Positions 6,573 through 34,504 are shown, counted from the first letter of the stretch. The stretch is DNA of 64,000 nt from a candidate division FCPU426 bacterium (GCA_040756875.1 JBFLYH010000001.1:800001-864000); one strand, 5' to 3'. The notes: generated from the letters alone by a model not told the origin. Translations and numbers: made by a program.

Positions 6573-7532
6573 TCAACCTTTCCTGCCAGGCTTAAGCTCG
6601 AATGAAAAATCAAGCCCGAAAGGCCATAAACCGGGCAATGATCGCAAATGTCCATACCAAAAACGGAAATCATAATACCATGACGGTCGCGCCCGATGAC
6701 TTGTTTGAGGAATTGCGGTTTGGTTCCTCGGACAGGCCTGGCGGGGCTGATATGCGGTTTTCCAGCCTGGTTTCGGCGGAAGCCATTTTAAGTGGCGCAA
6801 CCCTCTTTTTATTCCGTGGGTGCGCTGGCGCTCCACGCGAAAAAAAGTCCTCTCAAACAAACGGCGCAAACCGCGCGCTGATAAAAAATACAAATGCCCA
6901 TCCTTGCCATACGGAGGGATTCCTTCCGTGCGCCAAAAGTCCAGAATAGGCAGGACATCATTTGAACCATTGGGAACGTTTAACAGCAAACGCCCTTCCG
7001 GTTTAAGAATGCGGTGGATTTCAACCAGGAGGCCGGCCGGATCCAAAACGTGCTCCAGAACGTTATTGACCTGAACGACATCGAAAAACGCGTCGGGATA
7101 TGCGGCATCCGCTAATTGGCCGGTTGCTACTTGAAGCCCCAAAGTATCACGGGCGAAGGCCGAAGCTGCAGGCGAAAACTCGCATCCATAGACTTCCCAC
7201 GAGGAATGCCGCCGGATCCCGTTCAGCATGAAGCCAGTGGCGCAGCCTACATCCAAAAAAGTGCCGGTTGGTTTTTGCCGAGAAAGGCGGGCGGCGAAAC
7301 AACGGCCTTTGCCCTCCTCCTGGTCGCGATCGAAGGAATAATAATCAGCGGCATAAAAATCCGCCAATTGACGGCCGGAAGGAAGCGGATGGAAAAACCA
7401 ACTGGCGCATTCAACACATAACAGCAGATTGAATTGGTCATTTGGCCTCAACTGGACCCGAGCCGATACCGTCTTGGGGCTTGCACTGGCGCAAACCGGG
7501 CATGGTATGTTGTTTTCAGTCATGGTTCCCAC
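6573..7532 (-). CDS. Class I SAM-dependent methyltransferase with N-terminal Zn-ribbon
   Basis: CPVC..CVEC; LDVGCATG; NVLEHVLDP. Confidence 0.85.
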   Translation of the reverse strand: MGTMTENNIPCPVCASASPKTVSARVQLRPNDQFNLLLCVECASWFFHPLPSGRQLADFYAADYYSFDRDQEEGKGRCFAARLSRQKPTGTFLDVGCATGFMLNGIRRHSSWEVYGCEFSPAASAFARDTLGLQVATGQLADAAYPDAFFDVVQVNNVLEHVLDPAGLLVEIHRILKPEGRLLLNVPNGSNDVLPILDFWRTEGIPPYGKDGHLYFLSARGLRRLFERTFFRVERQRTHGIKRGLRHLKWLPPKPGWKTAYQPRQACPRNQTAIPQTSHRARPSWYYDFRFWYGHLRSLPGLWPFGLDFSFELKPGRKG

Positions 7533-20550: not shown

Positions 20551-20624
20551 GGCGGGGACTCCGGGCCAAAAGAATTCCGGTCATTTTAGGGAGAGGCCGT
20601 GGATTTGTCCACGAAAAAGGCTTG

Positions 20625-21017
20625 TCAGGTTTTGCAATTCCGCTGCTTTGGGGCAGTTTCTTCACACTCTTCACGCTCCGCCCTTTTGCCGCCAAATGCA
20701 TGGATGGTCCGGGTGCCTGCGCAACAGCGCCCTCCGTGCCGCAGGCCTGCCGGTATGTGCAATTCATCTCCCGGTTTAAGGATTACTGTCTTTTCCGGCA
20801 AAATCACGGAATATTCCCCCTGCACGCACACGAGGTACTCGTCATATTCATGGGCATGAGCATTCGATTCACGGTCCTGATAACAGGTCCAGAAAGCCAT
20901 TTGGCTGCCGTCGACTCCGTCATAGACATAACCTTCAATGTCCCGGGTATATTGGGAGCTGCTTTTGATACGGTTGGCTGCTTTGCGCATGAATTCGGGA
21001 AAATGTTCCATAATCAC
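20625..21017 (-). CDS. Cupin domain protein
   Basis: HAHEYDEY..G; PGDELHIPAGLRHG. Confidence 0.85.
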   Translation of the reverse strand: MIMEHFPEFMRKAANRIKSSSQYTRDIEGYVYDGVDGSQMAFWTCYQDRESNAHAHEYDEYLVCVQGEYSVILPEKTVILKPGDELHIPAGLRHGGRCCAGTRTIHAFGGKRAEREECEETAPKQRNCKT

Positions 21018-21189
21018 CTCTCATTTTTTTAAAATCCTTCATATGTATAAATCCGCAGCACGAAAATCCACGGGTTTTGCTTAAGTTTTACAGATATCAG
21101 CGGATACTACCAAATGGGATAGTCGAATGGCAGCTCGCGGCCCGGTAAAAAGCAAGGGGCGGCCGCCCCTATTAAGAGGTACACCCGTC

Positions 21190-21594
21190 ATGAAACCCGT
21201 GACAATCATTGACGACGATTATATGACCGTTTGGTATCACATCGAAGATAAAATCCTGCATCACAAATTTAAAAAGTTTACTTCAGGCAGTCATCTCCGG
21301 GACAACATGCTCAAAGCAGCTGAAATCTTCCGTGACCGCGGTGCCTGTAAATGGCTGTCGGATGACCGCGAAAACTCCGCCATCCCCTCGGAAGACCGCG
21401 CCTGGGGCGATCAATACTGGCTGCCGATCGTCTTGAAAGCCGGTTGGAAGTACTGGGCGATGGTCCTGCCCCGCAAGATCGTGGGCCAAATGAACATGAA
21501 ACGGATCATTGACGCGTATGCCAAGCTCGGATTAACCACACAAATCTTTTCGGACCCCGAAACGGCCATGGGGTGGCTGAAAAATCAATCCTGA
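21190..21594 (+). CDS. STAS/SEC14-like hypothetical protein
   Basis: KWLSDDR, GWKYWAMVLP, FSDPETAMGWL pattern; AGAGG RBS before ATG 21190. Confidence 0.65.
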   Translation: MKPVTIIDDDYMTVWYHIEDKILHHKFKKFTSGSHLRDNMLKAAEIFRDRGACKWLSDDRENSAIPSEDRAWGDQYWLPIVLKAGWKYWAMVLPRKIVGQMNMKRIIDAYAKLGLTTQIFSDPETAMGWLKNQS

Positions 21595-21671
21595 CCAACT
21601 CAGCGTCCTATAGCGAGGCATTTTGTATAGGGAATGATTTCACATGGACTTCCAGCACTATTTACTGCGCA

Positions 21672-23435
21672 TCATTTGATTACTGCAAACTTAACGGAAG
21701 CTTTCAATACGCCATTCATTCGCACCCTAGCCAGATAAATGCCGCTTGCCACAGAATGGCAATCCCATAATAAATCCAGCTCCGGCCCCTGGGAGGCAGA
21801 ACCTCGCATTCCTGCGATCCGCTCTCCGGCCGGATTGAAAATATCTATGGTCACTTCGGCAGCTTGGGCTGTTTCTATGACAAAACGCACATGTTCCCGC
21901 GCGGGGTTGGGATAAACCAATATGCCATGAGCCCGCAGGAGATCGTCCGCCCGCGGATCGCGAGGCCAAACGGTACAGGTCTGTGTGACGGTTGGGCTGG
22001 CCGTGCTCAGAACGGTTGCGAAGGCCGAAGGACTTGCCGTTTGGGTTGGGGTTGAAGTAACAGTAGTGGTATCTGGCGGAGTTCCAGTCTCGGAAGCCGT
22101 GGCAGTGGACGTTACGGTGGAAGTGACGCTGGCAGTCCAGGTTGGAGTCGTCGTTGGAGTGGGTGTTGGGGTGGAGGTCATGGTCGGCGTCGAGGTGCTC
22201 GTGCCCGTTGCAGTTGTGGTAGCAGTCGGCGAAACGGTTGTTGTAGGCGTGGGCGTTGGAAAGGCATGGTGTTTGATATAAAGCCGAGCCGGAGCGCCTT
22301 CGCTCCAACCTGCGAAAAGGTAGTAATTGCCCTGGGCGAGACTGGGGTTCACGGCGGAAGCGTTGACATCGTAATTTAAATACGTCCCGTCCAGGGCCCA
22401 GCTGGAACCGTTATAATATTTGACGTAAATGAAGTTCTGGCCTGACCCGCTTTCTTGCCAGGCAACATATTGGGTGCCAGCATAGAAAACGGAGCTTGGA
22501 TTCGCCGCACTGCGGTTCACGTCTGCATTGAGATACGTCCCCCTGGAATACCAGGCGCCGCCGCTGTAGTATTTAACATAGACAGAGGTAGGACCGGCAA
22601 CCGTCTCCTCCTGCCAGGCCACAGCCGGGATTCCGCTGTCCGCGCAGATGCTCGGATTGGTCGCATTGCGGTTCGCATCCACATTGAGGAAGCTTCCGCA
22701 TGGTTGCCAGGAGGCGCCGTCATAGTACTTAACCCAGACGTGCTGGCGCAAACCATCGCTCTCCTGCCAGGCTACATAAGGCGTGCTGCCGCTGAATGCC
22801 AAGCTGGGATTGAGTGCGCTATAATTTGCATCGTAATTGAGGTAGCTTCCGCACAACTGCCATAAACCGCCTGAGTAGCGTTTCACATACAACCGGCTCG
22901 CGCCCGCAGTGGTCTCATTCCAAGCGACATAGGGCACGCCGCCGTTTACCGCCAGGCTGGGATTGGTCGCGGAACGGTTTGCATCCACATTGAGTTGAGC
23001 GCCCTGCGGTTGCCAGTTGAATCCATCGTAATACCTGACCCAGATTTTGTTGTTAATCCCATCGGTTTCCTGCCAGGCTATATACGGCGTACTGCCGTTA
23101 AACGCTAGGCTGGGATTGGCCGCACTGCGGTTAACGTCCTGGTTGAGCGAGCCCCCGCACGGCTGCCAACCGAAACCGTTGTAAAATCGCACATAGATTT
23201 GTTCGGCTGTGCCGTTGTTCTCTTGCCAAGCGACAAATGGGGTGGAGCTGTCAATAGATACGCTTGGTGCCAAAGCACTACGATTGACATCAATATTAAG
23301 GCTGCCATTGTCCGGAACCCAGGAAGCGCGAAGCAAACCAGGTGGAATCAGGAGTAAAAGGAAGGTAAAAATAAAAAAAAACCGCTTAAATCGGGGTTCC
23401 GTGCTACCATTTACACCATAATATCGAGATTGCAT
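21672..23435 (-). CDS. Secreted seven-repeat (beta-propeller-like) protein with Thr/Pro linker and T9SS type-A-like CTD
   Basis: Signal peptide; 7 repeats of about 51 aa (W..G..LN.D.NRSA.NPS..PYVAWQE..YVKYY); TPT tract; YPNP..FNPAG..ASGIY..KFAVIK. Confidence 0.85.
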   Translation of the reverse strand: MQSRYYGVNGSTEPRFKRFFFIFTFLLLLIPPGLLRASWVPDNGSLNIDVNRSALAPSVSIDSSTPFVAWQENNGTAEQIYVRFYNGFGWQPCGGSLNQDVNRSAANPSLAFNGSTPYIAWQETDGINNKIWVRYYDGFNWQPQGAQLNVDANRSATNPSLAVNGGVPYVAWNETTAGASRLYVKRYSGGLWQLCGSYLNYDANYSALNPSLAFSGSTPYVAWQESDGLRQHVWVKYYDGASWQPCGSFLNVDANRNATNPSICADSGIPAVAWQEETVAGPTSVYVKYYSGGAWYSRGTYLNADVNRSAANPSSVFYAGTQYVAWQESGSGQNFIYVKYYNGSSWALDGTYLNYDVNASAVNPSLAQGNYYLFAGWSEGAPARLYIKHHAFPTPTPTTTVSPTATTTATGTSTSTPTMTSTPTPTPTTTPTWTASVTSTVTSTATASETGTPPDTTTVTSTPTQTASPSAFATVLSTASPTVTQTCTVWPRDPRADDLLRAHGILVYPNPAREHVRFVIETAQAAEVTIDIFNPAGERIAGMRGSASQGPELDLLWDCHSVASGIYLARVRMNGVLKASVKFAVIK

Positions 23436-23530
23436 TGGAATTCCTTTCCAGAGGATTCCATTTAATACCCATTTATATCGGCTGGCAACAGATTTCTGAA
23501 CACTTCTATGGCAGCGGGCGGTAAAGCAGC

Positions 23531-25516
23531 ATGGAAGCACCATCAAATAGCCTCCTCAAAACCAATCCTTTCCTAACCGTGGTCTATGTCACTACTGCGG
23601 CACTCCTGCTCTTCGGATTATTTCTGCAGCCCATTCAGGATCCGGACGTTTATATCCATTTGCGGGACGGAAAAGAATGGGTGGATTCCGGGTTTACGCC
23701 GGGAGCAGATCCTTTCACTTTTACCCTAGGCGAGCACCATTCCGCTGAAAAAGTCGAATGGCTGTTCCGGATACTGCTGTACTCCGTGTGGCAGGCCGGA
23801 GGCCTGACCGCGCTCATCCTGCTTAAAGCACTGATCATGACCCTTTCGGTCCTGGGCCTAGGGGCATTACTCTGGCGCCAATGGCCGAATTTATTCGTGG
23901 TCAGTATCCTGCTGGGTTTGGGTTTGCTTGCTCCCGGTCTGCCGGTTTTTGATCCCCGACCCTGGCTGGTGACTTATCCCTGTTTGATTCTCAGCCTATG
24001 GCTCCTGGAAAACGTCCGGGAAGAGTTTATCCAAACTCCATTTCGCAAATGGCGATATATACTGTTTTTTCCCGCACTGACGGTTTTTTGGGTTAATTGC
24101 CACCCGGGCTTTGTCCTACTGCCGGTCGTATTGGGCGCAGAATGTGCCGAAGCACTCTGGCACTATGCGGTCAAACGGTCCAAAACCGCCCGCCGCCACA
24201 TGCTTTTCGCAAGCGGATTATTGCTGGCGGTTATCCTCGCAGGCGCCGCGAATCCCCTCGGATTTAATATTTACACCTGGGTGCTCAGTATTCCTTTTAA
24301 TCCCCTCTTGACCACGACCATCGTCGAATGGCTGCCGCCGGAGCTTGTGCGCAAACCATTTTTCTTCCTGATTTTGGCTTCATTTTGGATAGGGGCGCTC
24401 GTCGCGTGGCGCCGCGTGCGCTTGCGCGACGTGTTGTTGTTGGCACTTTTCTCATTTCTGGCCGTGAAATCACGCCGCCAAATAGGCGTGTTCATCATCC
24501 TGGTGCTTCCGCCACTGACGGCTCTGCTGCATCTGATTTCCAAACGTTTTCATCCGCTTTTTTCTCGCCCAGATTCGTGGCGCCGTATCAGCTTAAGTGC
24601 TTCTGCTGCCGGGCTGCTTTTGGCAGCCATTCTAGGCGCGGTTCAGGGCTGGGCCTTCAGAACGGGCGAGAACTTCGAAGCCTACCCATCGGCAGCCCTG
24701 GCCTGGCTGCAACAGGAAAATAAAACCGGCCGCCTTTTTTGCCCCTTGCACTGGGGCGGATTTGTCGGCTGGAAGGCAAAAGGATGTTTTACGATTTTTC
24801 TCGACGGCCGGCTGCCCGAATACCCGCAACCCCTTTACCAGGATTACCTAGATATATACTACGGCAAACCCGGACGCGCACTCAATTTGCTGCAGGATTG
24901 GCGCGTGCAAATCCTCTTGCTCTCCCCTCACGACGATCCTGCTCTCTTTCGGGAACTTGCTCTTTCTCGCCATTGGAATTTGGTTTATTGGGACCACACA
25001 GCCGAAGTTTTCCTGCCAACCGAGGGATCACACGAGGAGTGGATGCAAGCGCACGCCTATCGTTACCTTGATCCCAACAGCCAGCCGTTTTTCGATCCCA
25101 ACCACCCAGACCTGGCTTATGCCGAAGCGCGACGTGCCATCCATGCGGCACCAGAATCTTATCTCCCCTACTATTTTGCCGGAAATCTCCTGGTGCGCGC
25201 CGCCGAATTGTCCGCAGCGCAAAAGCCGTTGCAGACTGCCATTGCCCTGGAACCTACATACGCCTACGCGCTGTTTGATTTGGCCTTTATTGCCTGGCGG
25301 CAATCCCGTTCTCCAGAGGCCGAAACCTACGCCCGCCGTGTCCTCCAACACAGCCAAAATCGGATGTTGAGCGCAAAAACCCACATGCTACTGGCGGAGA
25401 TTCTCGAGTCTCAGCCGCGACGGCGCTCTGAAGCCAGACGCCAAGCCCGTCTGGCCAAGCAAAAAGATCCAGCTTTAAACGGAATCGACGAACTCATTGA
25501 AAGGCTGTCGCACTGA
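23531..25516 (+). CDS. Polytopic membrane protein, GT-C glycosyltransferase-like, with C-terminal TPR
   Basis: DPDVYIHLRDG, DPFTFT, EWLF, WVNCHPG, IVEWLP, WGGFVGW, FLDGR motifs; TPR tail. Confidence 0.7.
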   Translation: MEAPSNSLLKTNPFLTVVYVTTAALLLFGLFLQPIQDPDVYIHLRDGKEWVDSGFTPGADPFTFTLGEHHSAEKVEWLFRILLYSVWQAGGLTALILLKALIMTLSVLGLGALLWRQWPNLFVVSILLGLGLLAPGLPVFDPRPWLVTYPCLILSLWLLENVREEFIQTPFRKWRYILFFPALTVFWVNCHPGFVLLPVVLGAECAEALWHYAVKRSKTARRHMLFASGLLLAVILAGAANPLGFNIYTWVLSIPFNPLLTTTIVEWLPPELVRKPFFFLILASFWIGALVAWRRVRLRDVLLLALFSFLAVKSRRQIGVFIILVLPPLTALLHLISKRFHPLFSRPDSWRRISLSASAAGLLLAAILGAVQGWAFRTGENFEAYPSAALAWLQQENKTGRLFCPLHWGGFVGWKAKGCFTIFLDGRLPEYPQPLYQDYLDIYYGKPGRALNLLQDWRVQILLLSPHDDPALFRELALSRHWNLVYWDHTAEVFLPTEGSHEEWMQAHAYRYLDPNSQPFFDPNHPDLAYAEARRAIHAAPESYLPYYFAGNLLVRAAELSAAQKPLQTAIALEPTYAYALFDLAFIAWRQSRSPEAETYARRVLQHSQNRMLSAKTHMLLAEILESQPRRRSEARRQARLAKQKDPALNGIDELIERLSH

Positions 25517-25615
25517 ACCGGCTTCCGTCCTCCCATTCGAGTGAATAACCCTCATTTCCCCAGGTTGCCTTGCTGGCCCAAGTGAATCAAAACGCATATT
25601 TTGGAGGACAATAAC

Positions 25616-25647
25616 AAAAAACCCCTGCGCCTTTCGACGCAGGGGTT
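25616..25647 (-). terminator. Intrinsic terminator
   Basis: A-run then ACCCCTGCG..CGCAGGGGT hairpin between convergent genes. Confidence 0.7.
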
Positions 25648-25699
25648 GATTATTAATCCTTAATTATGCCGCCCGGTTTTCGGGGGGGCCGAATGCCGT

Positions 25700-26221
25700 T
25701 TACCACCTGTCAAATACCCATATCAATGCAGCCGCAATAATGAAAAAGACCGCCAACCCAAAAGTAAATAAAATGCCGATTATATCGCAGCCCTTGATTA
25801 ATACCGCCTGTCTTGGATAGTCTGGTTGATAATAGACGGTCACCTGATCGCCGGCAGGATATACGGCAATCAGACCGCGGCGGGAGAACACCATGCCGAA
25901 TTGAATCCGTTCCCCTCGATACTCTTGGCCGTCGACCGTATAGGTGTAGGCTATTTTGGGATAAGCCGTCTTCACACTCCCGCCGGTTCTGCCGCCGTAT
26001 GCCAAATTTTGCGATATCACGTTTTTAGCATCCGCGACCATACCGGTCGTGCTCGGCCATTTTTCAGTCCATATACCGCGCACATATTGCGTAACGCCCA
26101 GATAGATTTCATACCCGGCCAGCAGCAAGCAGAGGGTCATCAACATTCTCGAAACAAACGACGACTCTGACATTGCATACTTCTCATTTTGGCTGGTATT
26201 GTTTTCAGGGTTCTCTTTCAT
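25700..26221 (-). CDS. DUF3592-domain membrane protein
   Basis: TM, WPSTTG, YTYTVDGQEY, GDQVTVYYQPDYP, TM. Confidence 0.8.
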   Translation of the reverse strand: MKENPENNTSQNEKYAMSESSFVSRMLMTLCLLLAGYEIYLGVTQYVRGIWTEKWPSTTGMVADAKNVISQNLAYGGRTGGSVKTAYPKIAYTYTVDGQEYRGERIQFGMVFSRRGLIAVYPAGDQVTVYYQPDYPRQAVLIKGCDIIGILFTFGLAVFFIIAAALIWVFDRW

Positions 26222-26344
26222 GACCTTCTCTCCACATAACGAGGCCGGTTGCTTCTAGGTTGTTTGCATTTTACAAATTGTAGTATGGGTTAAAAAGAAT
26301 TGGCAAGGTCATTTTGATTGGAAGACTGTTCGACGATTGATAAA

Positions 26345-26506
26345 AAGCAAAACCCCCGCAGGATTTCTCCCGCAGGGGCTTTGGTATTATAATTCCGGCG
26401 ACGTCCTAACACGTTCGCCGCGCAGCGGCAGTAAATGTGTCACTATTTCATCTCGTGTCATGACGCCGCGTATTCCAGCGGCGGAATTCTTCCCACGCAG
26501 TTGCCC
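26345..26506 (-). repeat. Terminator-like hairpin plus two degenerate 5S rRNA 3'-end fragments
   Basis: AATTCCGGCGACGTCCTA (26391) and ATTCCAGCGGCG..TTCCCACGCAGTTGCCC (26472) match 5S end AATTCCGGCGGCGTCCTACTTTCCCACACAGTTACCC at 31217. Confidence 0.8.
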
Positions 26507-26525
26507 AAATTTCGACTTTGTTAAC

Positions 26526-26843
26526 AAGTTGACTCCGGCCCCATTCATGATACCGCGTCTTCTGAATATAGTTTTACATCATTCCACGTCCGGTTCGGCA
26601 ATTGGCCTGATATCACTCTCCCCTTTCAACTTTCAAATGATGACAGGTTGTATAGACCAGGGATCAAGGGGAGTTGCGAAGTTGTTAATTCAATTCCAGC
26701 GGCGGAATTCGTTCCATGCAGTTGTCCGAATTTCGACTTAAGTTAATAAGTTAACTCCGGCCCCGTTCAAATATTTCCGGAGGTTAACTAGTTATTTTAA
26801 TTACGTCCCCTACCCACACATAAGTTAACTCCGGCCCCGTTCA
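26526..26843. repeat. Three copies of the 22-bp motif AAGTTRACTCCGGCCCCRTTCA
   Basis: Copies at 26526, 26748 and 26822. Confidence 0.85.
26615..26704. repeat. About 90-bp degenerate direct repeat, copy 1 (copy 2 at 28891-28981), ending in a 5S-end fragment
   Basis: ACTCTCC..ACTTTCAAA.GATG.CAGG.TGTATAGA..GGGATCAAGGGG..AGTTGCGAAGTTG..ATTCAATTCC in both copies. Confidence 0.8.
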
Positions 26844-26948
26844 TGTGGCAGTTTGGGACGCAATTAAAATAACCATTTAATTATCTAATGACCACGTTAG
26901 TATAATTATGCGGAGGCTAACTAGTTATTTTAATTACGTCCCCTACCC
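26844..26948. repeat. 105-bp MITE/REPIN-like element, copy 1
   Basis: Identical to 28718-28822; internal 19-bp inverted repeat GGGACGCAATTAAAATAAC / GTTATTTTAATTACGTCCC; partial third copy at 26778-26817. Confidence 0.88.
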
Positions 26949-27025
26949 CCCATTTTCATTTTGCGCCTATCTTTTTTGCGTTTATTTTGAAAGCCTATTA
27001 AATTGCGCGATTTAACCGCCTAATT

Positions 27026-27261
27026 TGAATTCAAATTAAAAAAAGCCCCCGGAAATCACCCTGGGGCTTTTTTTTAATTTAAATTCCGACGGCGTCCTAA
27101 CATGTTAACTGCGAAGCAGTTGCGGAGCAGAATTGTAATGTTATTCTCACCTTCCATGTCATGACGCCGCATTCTTCGGCGGCAGAATTCTTCCCACGGA
27201 GTTGCCCACGCAGTTATCCCCACGCAGAATCATCGGCTCCGAGGGGCTTAACGACCACGTT
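27026..27261 (-). pseudogene. Duplicated rrn terminator plus degenerate 3' portion of 5S rRNA
   Basis: 27026-27099 closely matches 31162-31234; 27174-27261 contains GCAGAATCATCGGCTCCGAGGGGCTTAACGACC versus 5S GCAGTATCATCGGCTCTGAGGGGCTTAACGACC. Confidence 0.85.
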
Positions 27262-27288
27262 AGGGTTGCTTCTCACCTCCAGGTTTCG

Positions 27289-27849
27289 TCATCGCTTGAT
27301 CTTTCGATCTGCGCTACGTCTTTTTGAAGACTTTTTTATTCGCTTTGCTTGTAGATCGTTTTCAAGTAACTTAAGGAGCGCAGTATTAAATTTCCGCTCA
27401 ATTTCATCCGTGTTAATTTTTTCACTAAACCCGATTTGCGCAACTTTTTCTTCCATAAATTGGCCATCCTTCTGAATATGTCGAACAACTAAATCAAGAG
27501 GAGGGCAACGATCACCCTTTTTACCGCCCTCTGAGTGCGCATTAATAATGGCGGCAATAAGATCAATGATGCTTTTCGCAAGAGAGATTCCAGCAGTAGT
27601 TAATGCTAAATAAACAAGAATTTCCGGGCCACTTTCATGCTCTTCAAACTGAAATGTAGTTTGGTCTGGCGTTAACGCGTTTAAGAATTTATCAATTTCG
27701 GCATATGCATAAGGCGCATGTTGCCTATGAAAACATCCTACTTTAACGCGAAGTTTGATCGAGACTGTTATATAATTTTCAGGGACAGAGTAAGCACGCT
27801 CAAAATCAAGCATACGTTTCTTAAATACGCCGTTCCAGGTTGATTCCAT
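27289..27849 (-). CDS. Hypothetical protein (AT-rich cargo)
   Basis: 186-aa ORF from MEST with GAGG RBS; GCFHRQH and EEHESGPE motifs; no family recognised. Confidence 0.7.
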   Translation of the reverse strand: MESTWNGVFKKRMLDFERAYSVPENYITVSIKLRVKVGCFHRQHAPYAYAEIDKFLNALTPDQTTFQFEEHESGPEILVYLALTTAGISLAKSIIDLIAAIINAHSEGGKKGDRCPPLDLVVRHIQKDGQFMEEKVAQIGFSEKINTDEIERKFNTALLKLLENDLQAKRIKKSSKRRSADRKIKR

Positions 27850-27949
27850 TTTTTCGCCTCGCTTCGCGTGAAAAAATGATTCAAACACCTGCAAGCATTT
27901 AAAATTATAGGTTTTCTTTCATAATTTGGAAAGGGGATTTCGAATATAA

Positions 27950-28717
27950 TGTAAAGCCAAAGTAAGAATGTCCGGTTTCTACCAAAATAGAAATATCCGG
28001 TTTTAGCCTGCCAATGCCAGCTTGCCTCCGGAGGCGATTCTCAGTTTGTAAGTCGCCTCTTTCCAAGGATGTGAGTCAGCTGCCGGGCGCTTTACTTGGC
28101 GCAATCGTGGGCGTGCTTGAGCCAACGGAACCGCAGTCAACTCGAGACGCTTCGCCAATTTTTTATAGGGAACGATCCGCTCCCCTGACACGATTCGCAT
28201 TTTGCCGTTGCATTGCTCTTGTACCTCTGCTTTTCCGCCCGTGCGGCGGCCCATCAGTTGATACCATTGCCCGCGATGCACGATGGTGCCGTCTTTGCGC
28301 ACTGGATGCTCCGTTCTGACGCTTAAAATCGCATTCAAATCCGTCCCGGCGGCTAGCGGACGATGAAAGTCTTCGGGTTCCATGGCGGCCACACTAAAGC
28401 GCTGGTTGTGATTTTTCCAGTATTCCTCCAAAAAACGGTTGGCTTCCTCAAGCGTGCTGATATTCCTCAGCCTCAGTTCCTTGACTAGCCGGTCTTGATC
28501 GGTTCTAAACGACCGCTCGATTCTTCCCTTGGCCGGCGCCGAGTGTGCATGAATGACCCGGATGCCTAGCCGTTCGGCCGCTTTTTCAAACTCGCTCTGC
28601 GCTTTTTGGTTTTCCAGCTCTTCCCGCACGGTCTCTCGACGCTTGGCCTGGTACGTTCCATGCCGGTCCACATAAATAGAACCCGGTATACCGTTGCGCC
28701 TTATATACCGTTTGAGT
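27950..28717 (-). mobile_element. Truncated IS1202-group (ISNCY / IS481-like) insertion sequence, 3' half
   Basis: YVDRHG, AHSAPAKGRIERSFRTDQDRLVKELRL DDE segment (ORF 28003-28737); end TGT at 27950 with two subterminal AATRTCCGGTTT repeats; N-terminus replaced by the 105-bp element. Confidence 0.85.
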
Positions 28718-28822
28718 TGTGGCAGTTTGGGACGCAATTAAAATAACCATTTAATTATCTAATGACCACGTTAGTATAATTATGCGGAGGCTAACTAGTT
28801 ATTTTAATTACGTCCCCTACCC
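28718..28822. repeat. 105-bp MITE/REPIN-like element, copy 2
   Basis: Identical to 26844-26948; sits where the transposase similarity ends. Confidence 0.88.
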
Positions 28823-29054
28823 ACGCAATGTGGGCAGCAGAGCATTTGAGAGGCGACAGGAGAGAGTGGATAACACCTCAAATGCGGTCTACTCTCCACT
28901 ATCTACTTTCAAAGGATGTCAGGATGTATAGATCGGGGATCAAGGGGGAGTTGCGAAGTTGCAGATTCAATTCCGACGGCGTCCTTACGCGCAACAGCAG
29001 CGAAGTTGACTAGGATTAAGTATGGTGTCCCCGTAATTAAGCGAGAGATCAATT

Positions 29055-29717
29055 TCAAGGTCGCTTAAATAAATTTACTATAATCGTTATTGCAGCGCCA
29101 ATTATCGCGCCAATTATAATTTTAATAATGTCATCTTTTTGCCTGATAACAAAATTTTTACTCTCGTGAGATTTAATTAATTCCAACCTAGAGAAGAAAC
29201 CCATTTGCATGAAAATTGACAATAAAAAGCTTAATGACGAACTTAGAAATAATGGTAAAACAACACACAATCTAACAACGCGATTAGGTATCCAAGCCTT
29301 AATTATATCAACGGGAATTATAATTATTAAGAATAATAATAGGGTATATGAAACCCCTACCACAATAGGATTTAATATGCGGCTAATTAATATCCTTCTC
29401 CTTTTTAATATCGCCATTATTTTCTCAAATGCATAAAATGCATTTTTATCTGAAACCGAACCATACAGCCACACATTAGTTTTGCTCACATCCAAAGATA
29501 TATAATAAGGCGTATATACCCTTATAGCAATTTTAGGTGGCGTTATACCTCTGGTGGATATTAATTCTTCAAGCGAACTATATCTGTTCTCACCATCTTC
29601 TATTATAACTTCAGGTGACATCTCAGACAGAAGGCTAATTATTTCCTCGACGTCATCCTTAAATAACTTTACCGTAAAACAGTGCACACCCTTTGTTTTG
29701 TTGGTTATTTTTTCCAT
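29055..29717 (-). CDS. Hypothetical membrane protein (very AT-rich)
   Basis: 220-aa ORF; soluble N-terminal domain plus about 3 C-terminal hydrophobic segments. Confidence 0.75.
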   Translation of the reverse strand: MEKITNKTKGVHCFTVKLFKDDVEEIISLLSEMSPEVIIEDGENRYSSLEELISTRGITPPKIAIRVYTPYYISLDVSKTNVWLYGSVSDKNAFYAFEKIMAILKRRRILISRILNPIVVGVSYTLLLFLIIIIPVDIIKAWIPNRVVRLCVVLPLFLSSSLSFLLSIFMQMGFFSRLELIKSHESKNFVIRQKDDIIKIIIGAIIGAAITIIVNLFKRP

Positions 29718-29805
29718 TGCATGTTCCCTTGTTTTTATAATATTTGTGCCTAAGTGGAGTTCCTCAAAAGCACTGCACTACCGTTCTTGACCCCAAGATG
29801 CCGTA

Positions 29806-30606
29806 CTACTTCTTTAGTTTCGCACATTCTTTACAATATGGACGTTGCCTACTAGTATCTATTTGTTTATCTCGCGAAAATACCTTATTACATTCTCCAC
29901 AATTGTAAGTATATCGTCCATGAATTAGTTCCTTAATGTGATCCTGGAAATAAAAGGGGGCGATGTCAAACTGAAATTCAGATAGCGAAAAAGATGTTTG
30001 ACGATTTTCAGCCTTCAATTCGTCCGGGTGCGAGGTAGCAACAATAACATTACGTGTATATTCGGGATAGGCAATTTTAATAGCCGGTAAAACATCAGAA
30101 TCACCGGTTACTATTACATGATAATCTTCATGTCTTGTTATTGCATATTTAATTAACAGGGCAACAACGGTTGTATCTACCTGTTTTTCTTGATAGGTAT
30201 GCTCAACCCACCTTTCAAACATATATTTCTTTAATATCGGTCTATAGATCGCCTGATCTGAATATCCCGCATTTATAGCGTGGTGCGTAAATTTTTGTCT
30301 GGCATCTATACCTTTTTTCAGATTTGAAATATTATCCTTGGAATATTTTCCATCAGAAAATAACAACCATTGTTCTATTTCTTTTACCGAAGGCCAAGTA
30401 AATATCGAAGTGCTAATAAACCTATCGCCCAATTCAGCACATCCCGGATCAATGTGATTAATATAATTTAATAAAGTCTGGTCAAATTTCTTAAAATTGA
30501 ATGGGAAGAATATGTCTGGCGTTTCCGTTTTCCTCGCCAAAACTTTATTTGGTGCACAAATCCTAAATAACCAAGAACCATCTACATAGGTATTTATTCT
30601 GCTCAT
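29806..30606 (-). CDS. NYN/LabA (PIN-like) nuclease with C-terminal CxxC-x18-CxxC Zn finger
   Basis: YVDGSW, EKQVDT, VTGDSDVLPAI acidic motifs; CGEC..CKEC. Confidence 0.82.
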   Translation of the reverse strand: MSRINTYVDGSWLFRICAPNKVLARKTETPDIFFPFNFKKFDQTLLNYINHIDPGCAELGDRFISTSIFTWPSVKEIEQWLLFSDGKYSKDNISNLKKGIDARQKFTHHAINAGYSDQAIYRPILKKYMFERWVEHTYQEKQVDTTVVALLIKYAITRHEDYHVIVTGDSDVLPAIKIAYPEYTRNVIVATSHPDELKAENRQTSFSLSEFQFDIAPFYFQDHIKELIHGRYTYNCGECNKVFSRDKQIDTSRQRPYCKECAKLKK

Positions 30607-30798
30607 CTCAACCCCCTTCGGCGCCCGTAGCATTCTTCGTTCAAAACAAGGTACCAGGCACCCGGAAATATTGGAATTATAGGCGTTACTATGCGGCTTG
30701 AAAAGGGAAATTCGGGGATATTCAACAATCTTAAAGGGATTCTCAAAAAACGCGGAGTTTCCTCCGCAGGGGCTTTAATACAGATAAGAATAAAGTAC

Positions 30799-30933
30799 TT
30801 AGGGCAGGGCCCTAGCAAAACACCCTAGAACTACTCGCAGCCAAAGCGTTAGTTGAAGTTCGTTATTAAAACTAACCGCAATAAAACAGGCCCAACCTAA
30901 AGTGATTGTTAGGACACGTATTAGTTTGGCCAA
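30799..30933 (-). CDS. Small hydrophobic peptide, 44 aa (not in ORF track)
   Basis: TTG start 7 nt after AAGGAGGT; MAKLIRVLTITLGWACFIAVSFNNELQLTLWLRVVLGCFARALP. Confidence 0.55.
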   Translation of the reverse strand: MAKLIRVLTITLGWACFIAVSFNNELQLTLWLRVVLGCFARALP

Positions 30934-31035
30934 GGTCAACACCTCCTTCTTTTCAGAAGCTGGTGTTTTACCAGGGTCATCCTGCCACGCATTAGGCCAT
31001 GCCCTAAATACTTTATCCTCCTTGTTGTATCATTA

Positions 31036-31074
31036 GAAAAAGTCCCCGCGGAGTTTCCTCCACGGGGGCTTTTT
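31036..31074 (-). terminator. Second rrn terminator-like hairpin (related copies near 30746-30777 and 26345-26382)
   Basis: AAAAAGTCCCCGCGGAG..CTCCACGGGGGCTTTT. Confidence 0.75.
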
Positions 31075-31162
31075 AACCTTACACATCAAACGAGCAATTG
31101 AGCAATTTGACCGCCCCGAGTGGAATGGGATTGATATGCGCCTTCGGCGACCTTGGGGCTCT

Positions 31163-31221
31163 GAATTTAAATTAAAAAAAGCCCCAGGGGGTTTCCCTGG
31201 GGCTTTTTTTAATTTAAATTC
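31163..31221 (-). terminator. rrn operon terminator
   Basis: Perfect 27-bp inverted repeat GAATTTAAATTAAAAAAAGCCCCAGGG directly after the 5S gene. Confidence 0.9.
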
Positions 31222-31336
31222 CGGCGGCGTCCTACTTTCCCACACAGTTACCCGTGCAGTATCATCGGCTCTGAGGGGCTTAACGACCGTGTTCGGAATG
31301 GGAACGGGTGTGGCCCCCTCGATATGGCCACCGGAA
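31219..31336 (-). rRNA. rrf: 5S ribosomal RNA
   Basis: Sense CACCCGTTCCCATTCCGAACACGG..GTAGGACGCCGCCGG; complementary ends. Confidence 0.97.
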
Positions 31337-31463
31337 AGCGTTGGCTTCGCAAATTGTTCCAATCCCCATACCGGCGGATTGGACTTTCGGACATAATGAG
31401 AGCTGTATTTTCGAGCTGAGAAGGCAGAATGACAAACGACCATATGCTTTACAGCCAAATAAT

Positions 31464-34504
<3,041 letters not shown>

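Follow-up and report, generated by a model that had tools for sequence, protein, structure and literature searches.

Copies of a 5S rRNA gene tail in a variable region downstream of the ribosomal RNA operon of a candidate division FCPU426 bacterium

The 5S-tail array and its setting

We examined a 64,000-nucleotide stretch (hereafter the window) of the genome of a candidate division FCPU426 bacterium (GCA_040756875.1, JBFLYH010000001.1:800001-864000), in which the 5S ribosomal RNA (rRNA) gene is followed by an array of partial copies of its own 3' end, small repeats and a few genes. The assembly (genome label G000) is metagenome-derived and comprises 3,220,762 bases in 7 contigs, the window being C1:800001-864000. 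Its single rRNA (rrn) operon lies on the minus strand (16S 36683-35117, the transfer RNA genes tRNA-Ile and tRNA-Ala, 23S 34502-31464, 5S 31335-31219), so that 'downstream' here means towards lower coordinates, and the units of the array are read in the direction of the operon, with coordinates decreasing. The relatives examined were 15 genomes of the order and 99 of the phylum, with one close (same-genus) relative, G001. The operon end and the four array units, W to Z, are as follows (nt, nucleotides; REP, repetitive extragenic palindrome; RAYT, REP-associated tyrosine transposase; A and B tails, two classes of 5S 3'-end fragment described below).

31219..31335, minus strand: 5S rRNA gene, the genome's sole 5S, which ends the single rrn operon (RF00001, 102.9 bits)
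31163..31221, no strand assigned: T1 terminator, a perfect palindrome with 27-nt arms (100% complementary) that overlaps the last 5S bases
31040..31072, minus strand: T2a, second terminator hairpin, related to T2b and T2c
30746..30776, minus strand: T2b, a shortened version of the T2 hairpin, matching T2a at 92% over 26 nt
28891..28985, minus strand: unit W, the A tail AGGACGCCGTCGGAATT (28966-28985) abutting a REP-like block; Smith-Waterman score 29
27026..27270, minus strand: unit X, 5S body ~40-105 (27264-27202), B tail (27201-27176), hairpin H (27172-27082) ending in an A tail (27099-27082), and a T1 copy, T1' (27081-27026)
26615..26769, minus strand: unit Z, RAYT-type repeat (26769-26742), 5S ~87-105, B tail (26727-26693) and REP-like block (26692-26615)
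26340..26547, minus strand: unit Y, RAYT-type repeat (26547-26520), 5S ~87-105, B tail (26506-26472), hairpin H (26472-26391) ending in an A tail (26408-26391), and T2c (26383-26345)

An initial annotation of the window, made from the sequence alone, had listed six fragments matching the 3' end of the 5S gene (26391, 26472, 26692, 27082, 27174 and 28969), and all six proved to be real and co-oriented with the gene. Three of them, the class A tails (28985-28969, 27099-27082 and 26408-26391), each reproduce the final 17-18 nt of the 5S gene with a single mismatch. The three class B tails (27201-27176, 26727-26693 and 26506-26472) carry a change of TAGGA to AATTC, with GAATTC present in each, and the B tail at 27174 runs on into 63 nt of 5S body at 82.5% identity. 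A 16-base pattern of the last 5S bases, AGGACGNCGNCGGAAT, has four exact matches in the genome, every one of them on the minus strand of the window (26392-31233), no more than 5 kb downstream of the single 5S gene and on its strand; allowing one mismatch adds just two matches elsewhere in the genome. Smith-Waterman comparison of the real 5S gene with 20600-31160 returned five matches scoring 29-69, where 30 shuffles reached at most 27. The fragment at 26692 taken alone scored below 22 and is backed by its 87% identity over 77 nt to the unit containing the 26472 fragment.

Searches with covariance models gave a narrower result. Rfam models on 24000-32000 (E<=10) and RF00001 on the whole genome recovered the real 5S gene only, the other rows being terminator look-alikes; the check with the 5S model proposed earlier thus scored the true gene but none of the fragments, which are too truncated for it. 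Nor was a second full 5S copy found genome-wide, either by BLAST or by RF00001, for which 31219-31335 alone rose above threshold. The presence of a 5S-tail array downstream of the rrn operon is confirmed.

Terminators are duplicated along with the tails. T1 folds at -41.4 kcal/mol (z -8.9). Its outer arm reaches into the final 5S bases, and since the palindrome is perfect and its arms include long stretches of A and of T, T1 could terminate bidirectionally. The near copy of the rrn terminator described in the initial annotation stood up to alignment, 27026-27099 being 87.8% identical to 31162-31234 over 74 nt with the 5S tail included, as did the kinship of the three second-terminator hairpins at 26345, 30746 and 31036 (81-92% mutual identity over 26 nt). 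In G012, which belongs to another family of the order, the native 5S end with its terminator matches the A tail of unit Y plus T2c at 84% identity over 68 nt, and on this resemblance T2 may be the older terminator type.

The assembly is sound here. A groundwater metagenome run contains 99% of the words sampled from the array region, and the Logan contigs of run X1 span it as five pieces that agree with the assembly at every base, breaking solely at two identical 105-nt copies of a miniature inverted-repeat transposable element (MITE) and showing a depth of 43-51, with about twice that on the MITE. One 2,523-nt contig runs from inside the 5S gene to 28795, and another, of 1,829 nt, crosses unit X. 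Since X1 is probably the source sample, the assembly compared is independent and the sample is not, so that the agreement checks the assembly and not the biology; two further runs (X2, X3) held only 5S sequence of other organisms. The idea that the array is an artefact of assembly around an rRNA repeat, raised beforehand as a possible objection, could appeal to the metagenomic origin and seven contigs of the genome, and to the identical MITE copies, which leave a k-mer graph unable to order the middle piece unequivocally. Every piece is nevertheless recovered without a difference and at even depth, and with a single rrn operon there is no rRNA repeat able to collapse; we regard an artefact as exceedingly improbable.

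Kinship of the four units and the hairpin they share

The units resemble one another in overlapping segments. Unit X is 72% identical to unit Y over 146 nt (B tail, hairpin and A tail), Y is 87% identical to Z over 77 nt across the junction of the RAYT-type repeat with 5S position 87, Z is 85% identical to W over 91 nt across the junction of tail and REP-like block, and W and X have an identical 17-mer in common (28985-28969 and 27098-27082). Y therefore has its left junction in common with Z and its right part with X, while the right junction of Z is that of W. Given this mosaic sharing and the derived features that go with it, the units are best described as inter-recombined copies of one decayed unit, and not as four duplications of the live 5S end. 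In the 5S body of unit X a 12-nt motif has undergone slippage-type triplication, and a body that begins at ~40 and is triplicated internally fits a decayed gene copy, not the core of an attachment (att) site.

Two traits expected of decayed 5S copies are present: 5S body beyond the terminal bases (~40-105 in X, ~87-105 in Y and Z) and an intrinsic terminator right after the tail (T1' in X, T2c in Y). The initial annotation had named, as an outcome that would overturn its own explanation, fragments derived from a single decayed tandem 5S duplication, or relatives with identical gene content; the first essentially matches the anatomy described here, whereas identical gene content was not what the relatives showed. 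Duplication at the locus extends beyond the tails: T1 is present twice, T2 three times, hairpin H twice, the REP-like block 28891-28968 twice and the 105-nt MITE (MITE105) twice. Apart from the RAYT-type repeat and a dispersed repeat at 28825-28911, these locally duplicated elements occur nowhere else in the genome.

Hairpin H (27082-27172 in X, 26391-26472 in Y) is 80-90 nt long, and in it the A tail pairs with an inverted partner in a 15-bp outer helix. The two copies fold alike, with the outer helix enclosing two inner hairpins (z -3.5 for H_X and -3.2 for H_Y), and at ~72% identity 9 of 47 predicted pairs have changed on both sides yet remain paired, while the C/T variants of the tail stay compatible with G-U pairing. 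Such a pattern, together with the intrinsic terminator after each hairpin unit, is what would be seen if H_X with T1' and H_Y with T2c were functional small RNA genes evolved from 5S tails and the remainder were debris. Several results make this very unlikely in our view. With just two sequences the covariation is anecdotal, and a covariance model of H finds no further copy among the 99 phylum genomes (best other E-value 0.45); the hairpin unit is absent from G001, the promoter scan noted no promoter-like site directly upstream, and unit W carries the tail without the fold (z +1.3). H itself may represent a palindromic product of duplication, a structured small RNA equipped with a terminator of its own, or a hairpin site acting at the DNA level.

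Variable cargo, mobile repeats and comparison with relatives

The rRNA genes of G001 are 94-95.5% identical to those of G000, and neighbouring coding DNA is 76.7% identical. After its 5S gene and terminator, G001 carries a REP element, a 64-nt leader, an unrelated 401-aa (amino acid) gene and a 35-nt REP-like block. Leader and block both have counterparts in the window.

30643..30706, minus strand: leader with a predicted sigma-70-like promoter and a small palindrome, shared with G001
28935-28969: REP-like boundary, 97% identical to the 35-nt block of G001 (L011:6716-6750)

The leader is 86% identical to G001 L011:5294-5357 over 64 nt (93.5% over 46 nt), and its predicted promoter, TTTTCA-17-TATAAT, is the best promoter-like site of the region. 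Its palindrome reads GGTGCCTGGTACC in G000 and GTGCCTGGCAC in G001, and homology stops 7 nt past it. The 401-aa gene that follows in G001 has a weak PADLOC match to PD-T7-5 and is unrelated (BLASTP E 2.7) to the NYN gene that stands behind the leader in G000. Judged from these alignments, the first cargo gene has been replaced between conserved flanks in the two species, and because the cargo that the leader and the REP-like boundary enclose differs from one species to the other, we consider the locus a variable hotspot. That part of the initial annotation, a variable site after the 5S gene with foreign, co-oriented genes and no local integrase, is borne out by the different cargo of G001. The variable stretch measures 10.5 kb in G000 and 3.1 kb in G001, with synteny resuming only at 20617 of the window, and on the left the swap is bounded by the leader (30643), which lies 580 nt past the end of the 5S gene.

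Further afield, G003, G007 and G012 have entirely different genes after the 5S gene and none of the array's repeats. No counterpart of the DUF3592 gene at 25700-26221 turned up in five relatives, and the 661-aa gene beside it has paralogue-level matches only, elsewhere in G001. In the 15 order genomes the strict tail pattern has more than one match in G000 only, and BLAST of 26340-27300 against the 99 phylum genomes returned only real 5S genes, terminators and dispersed repeats. A looser tail pattern gave more than one match in several phylum genomes; the two with clustered matches were inspected (G011:C13 and G080:C5), and both clusters proved to be coding tandem repeats. A looser-pattern match in G011:C10 is not a 5S gene. 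A metagenome scan with a 25-mer of the leader gave no match, and the single match to the REP-like junction in metagenomes was a chance one, in a coding region of an unrelated GC-rich contig. Immediately ahead of the REP-like boundary, G001 (L011 ~6640-6716) shows in succession the motif GGACGCGGAATT, a stretch similar to the RAYT-type repeat, and 15 nt resembling the first bases of the 5S gene together with those just upstream of it.

Four open reading frames (ORFs) lie between the 5S fragments of G000.

29806..30633, minus strand: cargo gene 1, NYN (LabA-like) protein with a C-terminal zinc ribbon (Pfam NYN 5e-4, weak; Zn_ribbon_8)
29055..29717, minus strand: cargo gene 2, protein of 220 aa and of no known family, its C-terminal half hydrophobic (GC 0.32-0.37)
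28003..28737, minus strand: C-terminal half of an ISNCY-family DDE transposase (NF033594 1.3e-47, below cut-off; profile 178-364/368)
27289..27849, minus strand: cargo gene 3, 186-aa protein of no assigned family (201 aa from an upstream TTG)

All four are on the rrn strand, as had been described, but the accompanying description of them as AT-rich suits three: the cargo genes have GC fractions of 0.32-0.44, against ~0.52-0.56 in the flanks, and the transposase fragment, at 0.50-0.56, is not AT-rich. Cargo gene 1 (GC 0.36-0.39) has a weak PADLOC match to HEC-09 (3e-6) and belongs to a family of ~262 aa in length, with 202 homologues at up to 57% identity and 36 loci across many phyla; at none of the 36 does the NYN homologue adjoin a 5S gene or a homologue of the 220-aa cargo gene 2. 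For cargo gene 3, 87 homologues were found, including one fusion with a TIR domain; the protein also bears a weak structural resemblance to EACC1 (TM 0.47/0.59, a lead only), and together these hint at a role in a conflict system. Homologues of the cargo show 40-57% identity and are scattered over many phyla, and PHROGs yielded no phage-family match for the three cargo genes, returning matches for the transposase alone. By its GC content and its homologues, then, the cargo is a set of patchily distributed foreign accessory genes, possibly with a role in defence.

The remaining features of the array are mobile or dispersed repeats and one small ORF.

30799..30942, minus strand: 47-aa hydrophobic ORF between T2a and T2b, doubtful as a gene
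28823..28968, minus strand: REP-like block adjoining the W tail; 28891-28968 is paralogous to 26615-26692
28718..28822, no strand assigned: MITE105 copy 2, which cuts off the transposase gene
26816..26843, minus strand: third local copy of the RAYT-type repeat (28-33 nt, TGAACGGGGCCGGAGTTAACTTA...)
26778..26948, no strand assigned: MITE105 copy 1 (full, 26844-26948) and a 43-nt partial copy (26778-26820)

MITE105 is 105 nt long with 25-nt terminal inverted repeats (88% complementary), and its two full copies, the only ones in the genome, are 100% identical; being short, non-coding, bounded by terminal inverted repeats and present in identical copies, it has the traits of a MITE. In a relative (G008:C74, locus L019, ~1500-2660) MITE105-like inverted ends enclose 1.1 kb with ORFs of 123 and 102 aa, which suggests that the MITE derives from a small gene-carrying element. 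The transposase remnant is single in the genome, and its full-length relatives in the phylum are 426-447 aa long. The 47-aa ORF has no family match, and the ~330-nt segment that holds it is missing from G001. The repeat at 28825-28911 is dispersed through the family: with its hairpin (GCATTTGAGAG...CCTCAAATGC) it is ~85 nt long, recurs in G000 at C3:260845-260931 and C3:167156-167238, and has many copies across family genomes (e.g. 7 matches in G008).

Copies of the RAYT-type repeat number three in the array and four elsewhere in the genome, and inverted pairs of it flank a RAYT-like Y1 gene outside the window (C1:1039783-1040787), the arrangement typical of REP/RAYT systems, with a Y1 gene between inverted copies of a dispersed repeat. 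The genome has two Y1_Tnp genes, which score 75.6 and 79.8 bits with NF047646, against a cut-off of 80. These RAYT-like genes (C1:1039783-1040787 and C1:1033649-1034659) encode ~335 aa with a long C-terminal extension and are followed by near-identical sequence and then by similar secreted-protein genes; the 28-nt motif flanking the first is dispersed in G000 and in other genomes of the family. The earlier proposal to look for RAYT transposases or reverse transcriptases next to the array's repeats was thus fruitful for the former, while the three reverse-transcriptase genes of the genome all lie far from the array. They are found at C3:160955-162978 and C1:1276041-1276655, two of them adjacent to each other and 1.3 kb from a copy of the RAYT-type repeat (C3:164326-164351). 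No link is shown between the RAYT-type or MITE repeats and the multiplication of the 5S tails. A neighbouring gene encodes a type IX secretion sorting domain, which points to a type IX secretion system in this organism.

Origin of the array and known parallels

We favour, at a probability of about 60%, a plasticity zone that carries four mosaic copies of one decayed 5S tail unit, with no dedicated recombinase acting on the 5S tail. The ancestral unit would have comprised the 3' part of an extra 5S copy with an altered tail, followed by a hairpin of 80-90 nt that closes in a second tail, and by a terminator. Duplication and recombination among short repeats would have multiplied it locally, next to a heavily transcribed operon, possibly by way of unequal crossing-over, slippage or the repair of breaks. 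The MITE, the RAYT-type and REP-like repeats and an ISNCY insertion sequence later broke up the copies. AT-rich foreign genes occupy the gaps, and at least the first of them, behind the conserved leader, has been exchanged between species, perhaps by illegitimate recombination or through homology of the conserved flanks. The comparisons demonstrate the multiplied mosaic units, their interruption by MITE, repeats and insertion sequence, the foreign cargo and the replacement of the first cargo gene between the two species.

Some observations weigh against this history. No intact second 5S gene was seen at the loci of four relatives (G001, G003, G007 and G012, with one 5S each), so that we can only infer the extra 5S ancestor; the order of the features before the REP-like boundary of G001 would fit a lost tandem 5S gene, but none of the 5S-like pieces there is significant alone. 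Pure decay does not explain the kept pairing of H at ~72% identity, with its G-U-compatible changes and three compensatory inner-stem pairs. There is one close relative and the metagenome scans were unhelpful, so that the history rests on a single comparison. Finally, a 1.87-kb gene-bearing segment is enclosed by the 17-mer that W and X have in common, and the A tail at the far end adjoins an ancestral-looking terminator of the G012 type, two arrangements that would be natural products of insertion at the 5S end.

The initial annotation had in fact explained the array by repeated site-specific insertion at the 5S 3' end or terminator: short gene elements, integrated through a recombinase encoded elsewhere in an integron-like manner, would each have left a duplicated tail. 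Besides the two arrangements just named, direct repeats of the target's 3' end (17-18 nt, one mismatch) do stand where this account needs them, one closing each of two gene-bearing segments on the distal side and one where the array ends (28985-28969, 27099-27082 and 26408-26391), the cargo is foreign and variable, and the sequence CGCCGC-N8-GCGGCG, made up of the B tail and the start of H, may by eye be likened to a core recombination site. Yet instead of independent copies of a live target, with an element starting at the gene end, we found tails with shared derived flanks, copied from each other, and a cargo swap whose left edge is the leader at 30643 and not the 5S end. Unit X contains 5S body and slippage repeats, the real 5S gene is followed by T1 and not by the sequence that stands after the B tails, the third segment lacks a gene, and no joints appear in the X1 contigs, though such contigs drop rare forms. 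Nor is a suitable recombinase at hand. The ORFs of 25700-31000 contain no recombinase family except the half ISNCY DDE transposase, and genome-wide the search for a driver in trans came back with two PF00589 genes, XerD (341 bits, over the cut-off) and a XerC-like gene (326, just under), neither in the window, no serine recombinases, and no integron integrase over the cut-off (models at 136 and 125 bits, against 265). In the parts of the literature searched, no integration at a 5S gene was found. Repeated insertion as proposed is accordingly an unlikely origin. A variant in which the 5S tail, with or without its hairpin (CGCCGC-N8-GCGGCG and the 15-bp helix ending AGGACGCCGYCGGAAT), is a true recombination site that captures circular cassettes in trans through XerCD or the RAYT-like Y1, the footprints being blurred by later local copying, appears still less likely. 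There is no attC-type hairpin for each cassette (H precedes the tail in X and Y only, W lacking the fold), an att-like hairpin is missing at the end of the sole two-gene segment, which ends in W, and by eye we saw neither RYYYAAC/GTTRRRY boxes nor a resemblance of the tail to the dif consensus.

Two other sources of tail sequence deserve mention. The 17-mers of W and X (28985-28969 and 27098-27082) might be the long target duplication of an ISNCY/IS1202-type element: IS1202-group elements have duplications of 16-28 bp and TGT...ACA inverted ends (PMC10132070), a transposase fragment lies between the two 17-mers, and its full-length relatives (426-447 aa) fall within the family's size range. 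We rejected this idea, which has next to no credibility, because the 1.87 kb so bracketed also holds an unrelated gene and a pseudo-5S (5S body, B tail and hairpin); moreover, TGT...ACA ends are missing from the junctions, and NF033594 is not established as IS1202-group. Alternatively, the tails could be leftovers of other rrn ends, from a lost second operon or a foreign one, that arrived with neighbouring foreign genes by recombination anchored on rRNA. In its favour are the two terminator types on the tails, T1' like the genome's own and T2c like that of G012, the 86-97% identity of the flanks of the swapped cargo between G000 and G001 compared with 76.7% for neighbouring coding DNA, and a precedent in hypervariable region 2 (HVR2) of SAR11, which is bounded by rRNA genes proposed as anchors of homologous exchange and for which no attC sites are reported (PMC2217521). 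But T2a and T2b follow the real 5S gene, so T2 may be ancestral here, BLAST of the region against the genome found no 23S or 16S fragments with the tails, and the common structure of B tail and hairpin favours local copying; a derivation from other operons is thus improbable.

Measured against known systems, the locus combines traits of several. Islands at the 3' ends of tRNA and transfer-messenger RNA (tmRNA) genes carry direct repeats of the last bases of the stable-RNA gene, in that gene's orientation, with foreign DNA between them, and the array likewise has co-oriented direct repeats of a stable-RNA end separated by foreign DNA. Unlike such islands, it has no integrase in or near it and none suitable in the genome, its repeats share derived flanks, one of them holds gene body, and the swap boundary lies away from the end of the RNA gene. 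Integrons consist of a conserved promoter segment followed by exchangeable, co-oriented, promoter-less genes, and the array too has a conserved predicted promoter followed by exchangeable, co-oriented genes that look promoter-less, but it lacks IntI and an attC-type site for each cassette, and one exchange is documented. In E. coli rrnD a second 5S gene stands at the distal end of the operon. Here, similarly, a further 5S copy with its own terminator lies downstream of the first, although the copies are 5'-truncated, diverged, multiplied and interrupted, and none is scored by Rfam. A 28-33 nt repeat in three copies and a 105-nt MITE in two recall REP/RAYT and MITE debris, with the difference from REP/RAYT systems that the RAYT-type repeat of the array is not an obvious hairpin.

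Of the described cases consulted, the SAR11 HVR2, ~48 kb in size, is the nearest parallel. It resembles our locus in being a strain-variable accessory block directly beside rRNA genes (PMC2217521, 10.1101/672428). It lies between 23S and 5S and carries surface-polysaccharide genes, whereas the array spans 5-10 kb after the 5S gene and has 5S tail copies, small repeats and genes like those of conflict systems. Among the literature matches listed, nothing relevant concerned 5S pseudogenes beside rrn operons. The locus is supported as a hotspot and is not supported as the product of an integron-like mechanism.

If the 5S tail were after all a recombination site, this would be the first 5S-anchored cassette-capture site. 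On the reading that we prefer, of decayed and locally multiplied 5S tails, the copies are an unusual trace that could mislead annotation or pass for att sites. Two aspects are noteworthy beyond this: the leader with its predicted promoter is kept between the two species while the gene behind it is swapped, and the hairpin unit derived from the 5S tail keeps its fold in two diverged copies. In this organism the DNA past a highly transcribed rRNA operon provides an example of such a site serving both as a dump for repeats and as a landing site for imported genes that resemble those of conflict systems.

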